Sequence record: NC_004928.1
Origin: Escherichia phage RB69
DNA: 64,000 nucleotides
Direction: 5' to 3' (one strand)
The position numbers and the translations under genes were made by a program. The notes below the pieces were generated by a model. It was not told the DNA's origin and searched no databases. It saw only the letters and a list, made by a program, of their open reading frames with translations. This document shows positions 19,070 to 45,109 of this stretch, in pieces. Position 1 is the first letter of the stretch, and the number at the start of each line of letters is the position of its first letter.

Positions 19070-19972
19070 TTACAACACTTTGAGCATCACGGAGCTTAGC
19101 TTGTGCCTTGTCCAGTTCAACAGACAGTTGGTCCACGGGGGCTTTGATTTGGTTGTAATGGTAATCTTCGGCCGGAAGAAGGCATTAGAACATTTAGTTT
19201 TACTGCCGACAGTTTGCACACATTTGGCAACCTTTAACATACCAGGTTGTGCCGGAGCTGGAGAATATGCACCTAAGACTTCGGCATTACCAACTGGTGT
19301 TGCAGTAATTGACGCTTCGAACGTTGCATTTTCCTTTTTAAGATTTTGATAGTATTCAGAGTCTTTGTGCCACCATGGCGCAGGAACCTTTTTACCAATA
19401 GATACACGAGCCTGGATAGCAATATGACCCTTATTCTTGATGGGGTCGATAATATTAAGCTCACGAGAATAAATTGCTTTAATCTGGTGGATATTATCAC
19501 CTAACACTTCCAACGCTTGGTGGAATACACGAGCAACGTTATCATTCTTAGGTTTATACGTAAGAGTGAACTCATTCTCACTGATAACCATGATTTCCAA
19601 CTTATCGTAAGTATATTTCAAATGTTTCATGTTAATTGCTTGAGGACGAATACGAGAAGCAATGGCCAACAGATTGTTAAGGTTATTTCTGAACTGTTTA
19701 GCAAAATATTGTCCGTAGCCGCCGATACAAAAATTACGAAGTTTCTGTTTGGCTAATAAACGGCTGAACTCACCATTTTTAATGAACTCTTTAACGGGTG
19801 TGTTAGTAACGCATTCAAATTGAGTAAACTTACGAGAATTAATCCCATAATATGAACAGATTTCCTCAATCTCTTCAGGAGTCTTTACAGGCATACGGAT
19901 AGGATTAGGTCCTGGAGTATATGCGTTCGAGGTAAATTCTTTGATAAGTTCTCTACGTGTAATAGAAGCCAT
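19070..19972 (-). CDS. hypothetical protein (300 aa)
   Basis: Long ORF with its own promoter cassette. Confidence 0.55.
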   Translation of the reverse strand: MASITRRELIKEFTSNAYTPGPNPIRMPVKTPEEIEEICSYYGINSRKFTQFECVTNTPVKEFIKNGEFSRLLAKQKLRNFCIGGYGQYFAKQFRNNLNNLLAIASRIRPQAINMKHLKYTYDKLEIMVISENEFTLTYKPKNDNVARVFHQALEVLGDNIHQIKAIYSRELNIIDPIKNKGHIAIQARVSIGKKVPAPWWHKDSEYYQNLKKENATFEASITATPVGNAEVLGAYSPAPAQPGMLKVAKCVQTVGSKTKCSNAFFRPKITITTKSKPPWTNCLLNWTRHKLSSVMLKVL

Positions 19973-31448: not shown

Positions 31449-31778
31449 TTATACTCTAGGCTTTTGAGCTTGTTTGGTATTGGATTCCCATGCGGCTTTG
31501 GTAATTTTGTTAGCGGCATAACCAAAGGCATTAGATAGAACACCTTTAGAGTTGAATACATCCAATCCAATAAGTACACCGGCTGTGTTAAATTTAGGAG
31601 CAAAGTACGCATTAGTTTTAGAAAGAGCTTTTTTCAATTCAGGGTCTTGAACCAAGCCATCAAAAACGCCTTTACTATTTACTTTGTATGTTACTTTGGG
31701 ATTTTTACCTTCTTCGATAGCAGCTTTCTGTTCCGCAGATAATGTAACTGCAGCGATAAACTCCTGATATGTTTTCAT
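31449..31778 (-). CDS. internal-protein-like protein with capsid targeting sequence
   Basis: N-terminus MKTYQEFIAA matches the T4 internal protein leader (MKTYQEFIAE). Confidence 0.6.
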   Translation of the reverse strand: MKTYQEFIAAVTLSAEQKAAIEEGKNPKVTYKVNSKGVFDGLVQDPELKKALSKTNAYFAPKFNTAGVLIGLDVFNSKGVLSNAFGYAANKITKAAWESNTKQAQKPRV

Positions 31779-31846: not shown

Positions 31847-32119
31847 TTACCAATACGACGGAAGACTTTCAGCTGCAAAACGGTTTTCAGGGTTTTTAAT
31901 CATGATTTGCATCATGTAAGTTCCTGCATCCGAAAGAGCTTCTTCATAGTACCCATTAATTTCTTTAAGAGTCCTACGTTTACCGCCAGGACCGTCAACA
32001 GTAATTCTCCATTTACCTGTAGAAGTGCGGCTCGGTGGCTCAACTTGTTCAATCCAAATATAACCACCTTCAACGCGTTGGTTGGCGGATTCTGCAATAA
32101 ATTCTTTATACGTTTTCAT
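31847..32119 (-). CDS. internal-protein-like protein with capsid targeting sequence
   Basis: N-terminus MKTYKEFIAE. Confidence 0.6.
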   Translation of the reverse strand: MKTYKEFIAESANQRVEGGYIWIEQVEPPSRTSTGKWRITVDGPGGKRRTLKEINGYYEEALSDAGTYMMQIMIKNPENRFAAESLPSYW

Positions 32120-32921: not shown

Positions 32922-33218
32922 CTATTTTTCTGAAGCGCCTGAAATATATTTTTCAAGACGTTGTTTCATTAGCGAGCCGTTCTTAGCGATTTCTTCCGGT
33001 TTATCGCACATACGCAACAAGGCTTCAAGCTTAACGATATCACTGGTGCGCTCAAATTTGCGAGTATCTATCTTGCTAGCAAGTTCAGAAATACGTGCTA
33101 ATAGACTTTCAGCTTCAACCAAAGCTGCACCTAGCTTCGTGGCAAATGTGTCAGTAGCTTCGTTAAGAGATAGATTCTGATAAAAATTCATGTATGTTTT
33201 CATATATACGCTTTCCAA
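32922..33218 (-). CDS. hypothetical protein
   Basis: 98-aa ORF between e and denV. Confidence 0.4.
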
Positions 33219-37724: not shown

Positions 37725-37824
37725 AATGATTCCTTAGCACAACGCAGGAGACGAAACCCAAGCACCTTCAGTAATAACGTAACCATTACCTTCACGCTTA
37801 ACATCGCCACCATTATTTTCAATT

Positions 37825-38040
37825 TCATTTTTCATACCACTGGGATACGATTTCACCCTTAGGATAATAAGTACGACCGCTACCATAATCACCTACAGAA
37901 AATGATACGGCATATTGGTCTGCGATCTTTGTTGCTTCTTCTTCGATACGTTCAGCTTGATTCAGAAGTTTATAAATTGCATCTGAAGCGGATTTGGCAT
38001 CATTAAATTCTGGTACTTTAATTTCGATAATCTTACTCAT
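37825..38040 (-). CDS. small protein, member of a tandem mosaic trio
   Basis: 71 aa; YGSGRTYYPKG motif. Confidence 0.45.
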   Translation of the reverse strand: MSKIIEIKVPEFNDAKSASDAIYKLLNQAERIEEEATKIADQYAVSFSVGDYGSGRTYYPKGEIVSQWYEK

Positions 38041-41390: not shown

Positions 41391-41420
41391 TACAAAAAAG
41401 CCCTATCATTTAGATAGGGA
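41391..41420 (-). terminator. rho-independent terminator (CCCUAUC..GAUAGGG then U6)
   Basis: hairpin followed by CTTTTTTGT on minus strand immediately after ORF ending at 41428. Confidence 0.55.
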
Positions 41421-41549
41421 TTTAAAATTATTTACCTAGTTTAGTTATTATAGCTTCGGCAGCAGCTTTTAGCTTAGATGCAGTGTTAATACGATTTTTA
41501 ATTTCGGTATACGCATCGCCAAGAACATCAAGGCTATCAGAATAAACAC

Positions 41550-41990
41550 TTACACTATTGCGTTCGCTATTTTGAATAGAACCTTTAGTTTTACGATCAA
41601 AATCAGTGTACACGTCTTGAAGACACGGGCTGCCTTCTTTGCATCATCCAATGCATCAAGAGCTTTATTCAAAGCATTGACATATTTTTTAGTGTCAAAC
41701 ATATTCTTAGAAATTTTAACAGGTGCACGTTCAGGAGTAGCTAAGGCGGATTTAGGAACCTGCGTGCCAGATGCCAGTTTCTTAGAAATTTTGAAAAACG
41801 CTTTATTGAAACTATTTTCTTGACTCATCGTAAAAGAACTAGTATCGATGTTATACATTTCAATAGCTTTAGCTTTCCACTTAAGAAAATCGCCACGGTC
41901 TTTTGGATCCAAGTGGAAGAATACTTTAGTAAGATCTGCTTCAGATGGTAATTTTGCTGCTTCGGTTAAAAATTCGGCATAGGTTTTCAT
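41550..41990 (-). CDS. internal-protein-like protein with capsid targeting sequence; 3' end uncertain
   Basis: N-terminus MKTYAEFLTEA; a second frame (41428..41613) stays open to the terminator. Confidence 0.5.
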   Translation of the reverse strand: MKTYAEFLTEAAKLPSEADLTKVFFHLDPKDRGDFLKWKAKAIEMYNIDTSSFTMSQENSFNKAFFKISKKLASGTQVPKSALATPERAPVKISKNMFDTKKYVNALNKALDALDDAKKAARVFKTCTLILIVKLKVLFKIANAIV

Positions 41991-42080
41991 TTAAAATCCT
42001 TGAAATAATTTATCGGTTGGTTATTAATTATTTATTACTTTGTTATTATCAGTAACAGCATTCTCTGAGTGATTCAAACT

Positions 42081-42108
42081 AAAAAGCCCCAACCTTTCGG
42101 AAGGGGCT
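42081..42108 (-). terminator. rho-independent terminator, identical copy of 26135..26163
   Basis: GCCCCTTCCGAAAGGTTGGGGC then T5 on minus strand. Confidence 0.55.
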
Positions 42109-42782: not shown

Positions 42783-42861
42783 TGGTCGAGACAGAAGGAT
42801 TCTAACCTTCAACCTACGGATTAGAAGTCCCCGTTGCTCTATACAATTGAGCTATGCCTCG
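42783..42861 (-). tRNA. tRNA-like gene, Arg(UCU)-like anticodon context with non-canonical loop
   Basis: 7-bp acceptor stem, D-stem GCUC/GAGC, T-arm GAAGG-UUAGAAU-CCUUC, encoded CCA; anticodon arm only folds with a 9-nt loop. Confidence 0.4.
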
Positions 42862-42867
42862 AATATA

Positions 42868-42941
42868 TGACCCAGACCAGATTCGAACTGGTAACCTTTC
42901 CCTTATGAGGGGACTGCTGCTAACCGTTGAGCTACAGGGCC
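42868..42941 (-). tRNA. tRNA-like gene, CAU anticodon context (Met/Ile), imperfect D-arm
   Basis: T-arm ACCAG-UUCGAAU-CUGGU, acceptor stem with one U-U mismatch, loop CUCAUAA. Confidence 0.35.
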
Positions 42942-44448: not shown

Positions 44449-44736
44449 TTACAGAAGAGTTTTTGCAATAATTTTAAGCTGAGCTACAGAAATATGCTTA
44501 GCTTTAAACAGTGCAGTCTCTTCAGCCGGAGAGATAACAATAGTAGCGCCATCTTTCTTAGCAGACCATCCATCCCCTAAGTAAACAGTACCTTTTACTT
44601 CTTCGCCGTCAACCAGACTAATCATTGGTTTACCCTCACGTCCTTTATTTGCTTTAATAACTTCGGAAGTAAGGGTTGCTTCGGTCAGAGTAGAAACGTT
44701 AGCAACAGGTGATATAAATTCTTTATAGGTTTTCAT
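44449..44736 (-). CDS. internal-protein-like protein with capsid targeting sequence
   Basis: MKTYKEFISP leader; start trimmed. Confidence 0.55.
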   Translation of the reverse strand: MKTYKEFISPVANVSTLTEATLTSEVIKANKGREGKPMISLVDGEEVKGTVYLGDGWSAKKDGATIVISPAEETALFKAKHISVAQLKIIAKTLL

Positions 44737-44758: not shown

Positions 44759-44798
44759 TGATAGGACTACTATAACATAGTCCTATCGTGTTGTAAAA
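44759..44798 (-). promoter_or_regulatory. early promoter cassette (canonical family)
   Basis: TAGGACTA-tgttatag-TAGTCCTA with -35 TTTTACA. Confidence 0.5.
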
Positions 44799-45109
44799 TA
44801 TTTTATGCCTTTAGATGAAATAGTATTCTGGCGTTTGACCCCTGTTTGTGAAAAATCATGGTTATCAATTTGGTCAACTCGCATAACACCAAATGCAGAT
44901 TTAATTTTAGCCTTTGAACCTTTTTTGATACTAATTACCATATAAGTATCATTTTTCTTATATTCGAAATTTGTTACTTCAACGCCTTGATTAGAAATTG
45001 ACTTAATAATAGCATTAGCGTATTCATCATCTAACGGACCGTTAGTGTTAATAACAAAATTTTTATCTGCTTTAGTAGCTTCCGCGATGAATTCTTGATA
45101 GGTTTTCAT
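44783..45109 (-). CDS. internal-protein-like protein with capsid targeting sequence (ipI position)
   Basis: MKTYQEFIAEA leader; located directly before 57B as ipI is in T4. Confidence 0.55.
   Translation of the reverse strand: MKTYQEFIAEATKADKNFVINTNGPLDDEYANAIIKSISNQGVEVTNFEYKKNDTYMVISIKKGSKAKIKSAFGVMRVDQIDNHDFSQTGVKRQNTISSKGIKYFTTR

Follow-up and report, generated by a model that had tools for sequence, protein, structure and literature searches.

Two overlapping reading frames of Escherichia phage RB69 read as the parts of one internal-protein-type gene with a missing base

Introduction

In the genome of Escherichia phage RB69 (NC_004928.1), a Mosigvirus, two reading frames on the minus strand overlap immediately ahead of a terminator hairpin. 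The question raised by this locus is whether these frames encode two proteins, one protein made by recoding, or the parts of a single gene interrupted by a base that is missing either from the phage or from its sequence record. The locus was analysed within a stretch of 64,000 nucleotides of this genome (the window), and all positions given here are counted from its first letter.

Two frames ahead of one terminator

The upstream frame, ORF A, begins with MKTYAEFLTEA and closes with the residues VFKTCTLILIVKLKVLFKIANAIV immediately before its stop codon. The second one, ORF B, covers the last 64 nt of ORF A, and its own stop codon (41430-41428) lies 8 nt before a terminator stem, CCCTATC-TAAAT-GATAGGG at 41419..41401, which is followed by CTTTTTTG. 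The initial annotation had described a frame A ending at 41550 with an odd hydrophobic tail, and a GTG-start frame that remains open for 61 codons as far as a terminator hairpin; both are present on the minus strand just as they were described (Table 1). The hairpin is the single terminator-like site in the 950 nt scanned, and a terminator is also marked at the homologous position in the annotation of phage PhAPEC2. The products of ORF A and ORF B are exact matches to RB69ORF149c (NP_861839.1) and RB69ORF148c (NP_861838.1), respectively, and each of them was seen on one contig only.

Frame B contains no stop codon for 71 codons (41643..41431). When the -1 frame of the long ORFs of the window was used as a chance test, the mean stop-to-stop distance was 7 codons, and stretches of at least 61 codons appeared in 4 out of 2,502 cases, with a single one (1/2,502) reaching at least 72 codons. 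Frame B is far too long for a chance ORF, and is real coding sequence shifted by one base. Since ORF B lies in the +2/-1 frame relative to ORF A (offset 377 nt), either one extra base or a -1 slip would join the two.

Table 1. Features of the locus and related positions in the window
Feature	Coordinates	Strand	Remarks
Shine-Dalgarno sequence of ORF A (AAGGA)	41997..42001	-	6-nt spacer to the ATG; read from the sequence
ORF A	41550..41990	-	146 aa, ATG start; codons 1-122 read as genuine coding for the N-terminal two-thirds of the gene, codons 123-146 as out of frame
Capsid targeting sequence (CTS) MKTYAEFLTE, codons 1-10	41961..41990	-	Y4 and F7 as targeting residues
Predicted mature N-terminus, from A11			AAKLPSEADLTK
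A6 tract (ACT AAA AAA TAT)	41685..41690	-	in frame in RB69
Break point	41623..41624	-	one A missing between the two bases; alignment column 398
Sequence at the break site			intact allele, CGTGATCTT; deleted allele of the RB69 record, CGTGTCTT
Out-of-frame codons, n=24 (VFKTCTLILIVKLKVLFKIANAIV, the "hydrophobic tail")	41553..41624	-	stop at 41552-41550
Tail peptides of the truncated product			VFK; TCTLILIVK
ORF B	41428..41613	-	61 aa, GTG start; read as the orphaned C-terminal third of the gene; homologous coding in frame B starts at 41622
Peptide of the intact gene joining the C-terminal third in frame to the N-terminal part			AARDLQDVYTDFDR
Peptides of the C-terminal third of the intact gene			DLQDVYTDFDR; NSVSVYSDSLDVLGDAYTEIK
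Intrinsic terminator of the gene	41393..41419	-	7-bp stem, 5-nt loop, T run
Other CTS ORFs	31449-31778, 31847-32119, 44449-44736, 44783-45109		
Frame differences versus PhAPEC2	19070-19972, ~16885, ~12106	-	

One gene in the relatives, one base fewer in RB69

The locus is matched by 163 T-even phage records at 90-99% identity, and the best match among phage records other than RB69's own is 99.1% identical. In each of the annotated relatives that were opened (ST2, PhAPEC2, CCU7, RB14 and ESh27) a single CDS of 564 nt is found, encoding 187 aa, and nearly all members of a protein cluster of 151 relatives have this same length. In the alignment, the CGT GAT CTT of the relatives appears as CGT G-T CTT in RB69, that is, a single A has been lost from CGTG[A]TCTT, and the codon affected is codon 123 (GAT). 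There is no homopolymer at this site, and the loss of the A destroys a GATC. When PhAPEC2_133 was used as a tblastn query, its residues 1-122 were recovered in one frame and residues 117-187 in the next one, the longer N-terminal segment with 100% identity, and amino-acid identity is 100% on both sides of the 41624/41623 junction. The earlier suggestion that a missed base would fuse the two frames was borne out, as the sequence with one A put back encodes the 187-aa protein that about 160 related T-even phages have.

The same division is observed at the level of protein families. The profile phrog_2280, annotated as 'unknown function', is covered from position 1 to 178 by the intact homolog (E=1.6e-53), whereas ORF A covers positions 1-121 (E=6e-37) and ORF B positions 121-178 (E=3.4e-10). 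An exhaustive HMMER search for relatives gave 6 matches, among them one distant full-length relative, P0038, a set too narrow for a useful alignment; this protein, with 204 aa, 31% identity and the leader MITFNEFLNE, runs collinear through the break in the alignment. On a short T4-like contig (L031 1419-2526), the gene for P0038 has a neighbour that carries ART-PolyVal (ADP-ribosyltransferase) and DUF3990 domains.

It had been proposed in the initial annotation that an alignment of homologs would reveal which of the two C-termini is conserved, and that homologs keeping the frame-A tail and lacking the second frame would speak against a fused product. The opposite was found: the C-terminus of frame B is the one that is kept, and the frame-A tail is present in no homolog examined. 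Judged from these sequence comparisons, ORF A and ORF B are almost certainly the halves of one gene broken by one missing base, with no recoding or overlap involved.

A 65-nt probe centred on the break revealed the deleted allele in 0 of 156 phage records (RB69's own record lying outside the set), and the missing A is private to RB69 against ten out of ten syntenic contigs. The allele gave no matches in IMG/VR, and in the metagenome and bacterial-genome collections, where it is likewise missing, three metagenome matches and one genome match were chance 20-mers with unrelated flanks, in GC-rich DNA.

The closest counterparts of the RB69 gene are RB14ncORF136c and PhAPEC2_133, which share with it 96-99% nucleotide identity, the same terminator and the same flanks (e.8 downstream and the tRNA cluster upstream), but are uninterrupted 187-aa orthologues. 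In RB14, the single ORF is annotated as 'similar to RB69ORF148c and RB69ORF149c', so the split in RB69 had been noticed; it is already known, in the sense that it is visible in public annotation, and no mention of RB69ORF148c, RB69ORF149c or ncORF136c was found in the literature searched. The arrangement resembles that of frameshift-split accessory genes and pseudogenes of reference phages, in which small neighbouring or overlapping ORFs match consecutive parts of a homolog as a result of a single-base indel, and the RB69 gene differs from these only in being of the CTS class.

Recoding and overlapping genes

Programmed -1 ribosomal frameshifting, which the initial annotation had placed beside a missed base, would join frame A to frame B and would allow the sequence, as it stands, to yield products of 146 aa and about 187 aa. 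The relation between the frames is the correct one for such a mechanism, its full-length product would resemble the homologs, and a weak slip-prone GCA AAG AAG lies within the overlap. However, a scan revealed an X_XXY_YYZ heptamer nowhere in ORF A, and the break falls exactly where the alignment, collinear elsewhere, has a gap of one base. Moreover, the two-frame layout is found in none of the 156 relatives, and therefore no frameshift signal could have been selected. Known programmed -1 sites (dnaX, or the tail-assembly chaperone G/GT of tailed phages) resemble this locus in geometry only, where an ORF in the -1 frame covers the 3' end of the one upstream, and differ from it in that RB69 has no slippery heptamer and no conserved arrangement, its relatives being single-frame. 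Recoding is therefore very improbable and, of the two mechanisms originally offered, fusion by one added base holds and the -1 frameshift does not.

Two independent overlapping genes had also been considered, one for a 146-aa internal protein with a hydrophobic tail and another for a separate 61-aa protein starting at the GTG, and the RB69 record does annotate two separate CDS. Against this, the sequence that precedes the GTG of ORF B (...GCCCGTGTCTTCAAGAC) contains no Shine-Dalgarno motif, and in the homologs this GTG encodes a valine in the interior of the intact gene (the V of ...DLQDVYTDF...). Taking into account, in addition, that the frame-A tail occurs in no homolog and that both pieces map to adjoining parts of one profile, phrog_2280, the proposal is effectively refuted by the homolog alignment and can hardly be credited. 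A single gene with a missing base is the reading retained in what follows.

A capsid targeting leader

The label of internal-protein-like gene has proved apt, given that the protein begins with a capsid targeting sequence of the T4 type, common to four other ORFs of the window including an IPI homolog. Within the leader, L8-T9-E10 followed by Ala conforms to an L/I-x-E motif, from which cleavage by the gp21 prohead protease is predicted between E10 and A11. When MKTYAEFLTE is compared with the MKTYQEFIAE of the window ORF 44783-45109, 7 of the 10 residues are identical, with Y4 and F7 kept. In IPIII the first 10 residues are enough for packaging; CTS positions 4 and 7 matter in targeting, and positions 8 and 10 in processing, gp21 cutting after L/I-x-E (PMC9026906). 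By its leader and its cleavage motif, the RB69 gene is to be classed as a member of the CTS-bearing internal proteins, and by its sequence as a member of phrog_2280.

The likeness to IPI, IPII and IPIII of T4 includes a 10-residue leader of the same form, with conserved Y4, F7, L/I8 and E10, the character of a small non-essential gene whose family varies between phages, and a position within the e-tRNA-ipI accessory segment, at a distance of 2.5 kb from the IPI homolog. The differences are that the mature part has no detectable similarity to these proteins, no match to Pfam IPI_T4, IpII or IpIII having been obtained for it, and that the RB69 gene is frame-broken. It is known that Ip1, Ip2 and Ip3 have nothing in common except the leader, and that each one inhibits a specific GmrSD-type restriction enzyme (PMC12373910; PMC9391042). 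Since these proteins themselves share only the leader (PMC12373910), the lack of mature-domain homology to IPI-III is not disqualifying. Pfam helical-bundle families gave sub-threshold matches only (Cytochrome b562, 17.7 bits versus a cut-off of 30), which were dismissed.

A low-confidence single-sequence AlphaFold model (pLDDT 63, pTM 0.31) consists of helices throughout, two of which (100-137 and 141-186) form a long hairpin at the C-terminus; according to this model, a break at codon 123 would remove most of the predicted hairpin.

By analogy with T4 IPI-III, an explanation for the locus can be proposed. The normal gene would be of the T-even 'internal protein' type, belonging to phrog_2280 (RB14ncORF136c / PhAPEC2_133) and encoding 187 aa, and its leader MKTYAEFLTE would take the protein into the prohead core. 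The gp21 protease would remove the leader after L-T-E, and the mature protein would be injected with the DNA. We infer from the same analogy that the intact protein is thus packaged, trimmed and injected, and that it is probably an anti-defence factor, this being its most likely role. In RB69, the A missing in codon 123 would lead to 24 out-of-frame codons and to the stop at 41550, and the last 64 codons would persist as an untranslated remnant, in which a gene caller reports a 61-aa ORF with a GTG start. The resulting product would be a CTS-bearing protein of 146 aa, devoid of most of the C-terminal helical hairpin predicted by the model. The mutation would be a loss-of-function or truncating one in a dispensable accessory gene, arisen in the RB69 lineage or in a laboratory stock.

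The same gene in other lineages

Further interruptions of this gene are found at a different site. The tract equivalent to the A6 of RB69 has become A7 in seven contigs from different samples, A10 in one contig and A5 in OE5505 (MK373785.1); the A5, A7 and A10 tracts are all out of frame, giving ORFs of 104-106 aa plus 81 aa, and the A7 version was found in no cultured-phage record. In addition, CT01 carries a 25-aa in-frame deletion in the same gene. The gene is evidently dispensable, and the poly-A tract may be a hypermutable on/off switch or a slippage site. The length polymorphism of this tract in other phages is the sole mildly unexpected observation of the analysis, and it lies outside the RB69 allele.

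In a broader proposal, phrog_2280 would be an injected, CTS-targeted anti-defence family that is recurrently switched off, with RB69, the A5/A7/A10 alleles and CT01 as independent off or altered states, and with the poly-A tract acting as a possible switch or being partly rescued by transcriptional or ribosomal slippage. As a whole this is unlikely; if the recurrent switch-off were true, it would point to a cost-benefit trade-off of an injected inhibitor on hosts that lack its target.

A mutation of the phage or an error of the record

The RB69 record dates from 2003 and belongs to the Sanger era. The deletion may be genuinely present in phage RB69, which is somewhat favoured here, or the missing A may have arisen in the deposited sequence through a mistake of base calling or assembly in a small unannotated ORF, with the phage itself encoding an intact 187-aa product; this second reading is quite possible, although it is held only tentatively. 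An error would be in line with a singleton allele in a record of that age, with no second occurrence in 156 records or in any collection searched. It would also agree with a second private single-base indel (37836), placed in an otherwise 100%-conserved small ORF, with a private adjacent double change 50 nt away that can be read as two miscalls (T3 to T2 and A3 to A4), and with the confinement of the frame breaks to small hypothetical ORFs, where annotators would not re-check traces.

On the other side, the deletion does not lie in a cluster of private variants: the gene contains 4 of them, where about 4.4 would be expected at the rate of 144 per 18.5 kb. A stretch of poor sequence quality is thus not indicated, and the sequence context is not classically error-prone. 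The large essential genes of the window are all intact, with 97-100% identity. Nor does RB69 stand apart from relatives assembled with modern platforms: over the 19 kb compared, private uncompensated indels of a length other than a multiple of three number 2 in RB69 and 0-2 in such relatives (10 syntenic contigs). The idea that the RB69 record is unusually rich in indels of this kind was consequently discarded, these figures being not discriminating. An error is also countered by the dispensability of the gene and its breakage in other lineages. The independent breakage elsewhere is the reason for the slight lean towards a real loss-of-function mutation, against which it has to be considered that no homopolymer exists at the site, so replication slippage offers no explanation. 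The second indel, at 37836, could stem from mutations accumulated in a laboratory stock or from uncorrected errors in unannotated ORFs. To any reading other than a real mutation or an error of the record, very little probability is assigned.

Searches for another copy of RB69 gave no match. The repaired protein carrying the private Gln of RB69 has no exact match in a collection of 15 billion proteins; the contigs encoding the Ser version of it include no RB69 copy, all of them being 94.5-96.5% identical to the window; and an RB69-specific 27-mer is absent from IMG/VR.

Significance for annotation and function

With regard to annotation, RB69ORF148c and RB69ORF149c are best treated as a single entry marked as frameshifted, unless resequencing allows the gene to be corrected, and the 61-aa ORF B should not be counted as a gene. 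The locus brings to five the CTS-leader genes that can be listed as encoding candidate injected proteins in RB69-like and T4-like phages, and RB69 may be a natural knockout of such a gene. Now that specific inhibition of GmrSD has been established for all of Ip1-3, orthologues with an intact gene, PhAPEC2_133 among them, are candidates to enter anti-defence screens.

Neighbourhood and other CTS genes

In synteny with PhAPEC2, the gene is flanked by e.8 and the tRNA cluster, and ipI lies about 2.5 kb away. The window contains five ORFs with a CTS leader, including the broken gene, and the other four start with MKTY(Q/K)EFI. One of these is the IPI homolog at 44449-44736 (PF11634, E=1e-50). Directly upstream of it lies the minus-strand ORF 44783-45109 (108 aa, MKTYQEFIAE...), assigned to phrog_2667, 'internal head protein'; at the ipI locus PhAPEC2 has IPI only, without a counterpart of this ORF. 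The remaining two, 31449-31778 and 31847-32119, are in tandem on the minus strand, encode 109 and 90 aa, both belong to phrog_3966, and occupy the place of the IpIII homolog of PhAPEC2, for which no tblastn match was obtained in the window. The presence of this tandem at the IpIII place, together with the lack of an IpIII match, indicates that the ip cargo has been swapped at this locus.

Between the gene and the tRNAs, PhAPEC2, ST2 and CCU7 have PhAPEC2_134 (154 aa), which is absent from the window (42081-42107), and this presence/absence polymorphism is flanked by terminator hairpins. In the tRNA region (42783-42941) two tRNAs were detected by ARAGORN (Arg-TCT and Met-CAT), versus three annotated in PhAPEC2 and ST2 (Arg, Asn/Asx and Met).

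Other sequence differences of the window

Frame differences of the window were audited at the protein level against PhAPEC2; a window-wide list of DNA gaps against the same phage consisted mostly of alignment wobble. At 37836, in a minus-strand gene at about 37737-38040, RB69 has a private extra A in TCTTTCAT[A]CCACTGG, found in 0 of 122 phage records. As a result, the homolog of PhAPEC2_125 (101 aa, 'similar to RB69ORF139c') falls into two frames, the longer segment with 100% identity. At 41573-41574, a private adjacent double change converts the ATTTCAAAT of all relatives into ATTCAAAAT; it replaces Ser by Gln in the orphaned C-terminal part, and can be described as a dinucleotide substitution or as a T3 to T2 plus an A3 to A4 change. 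A private compensated pair of indels (+G at 33169 and -C 21 nt later, at 33190) is found in the homolog of PhAPEC2_114 (RB69ORF127c-like), where about 7 codons are changed before the frame is recovered.

In the RB69p097-type ORF at 19070-19972, the C-terminal 55-75 aa lie in other frames than in PhAPEC2, in a divergent stretch of 88% identity. The PhAPEC2_78 homolog is split, which the annotators of that gene had recorded ('RB69ORF091c plus 092c'), and the C-terminus of NrdH differs from that of PhAPEC2 by a 2-nt gap.
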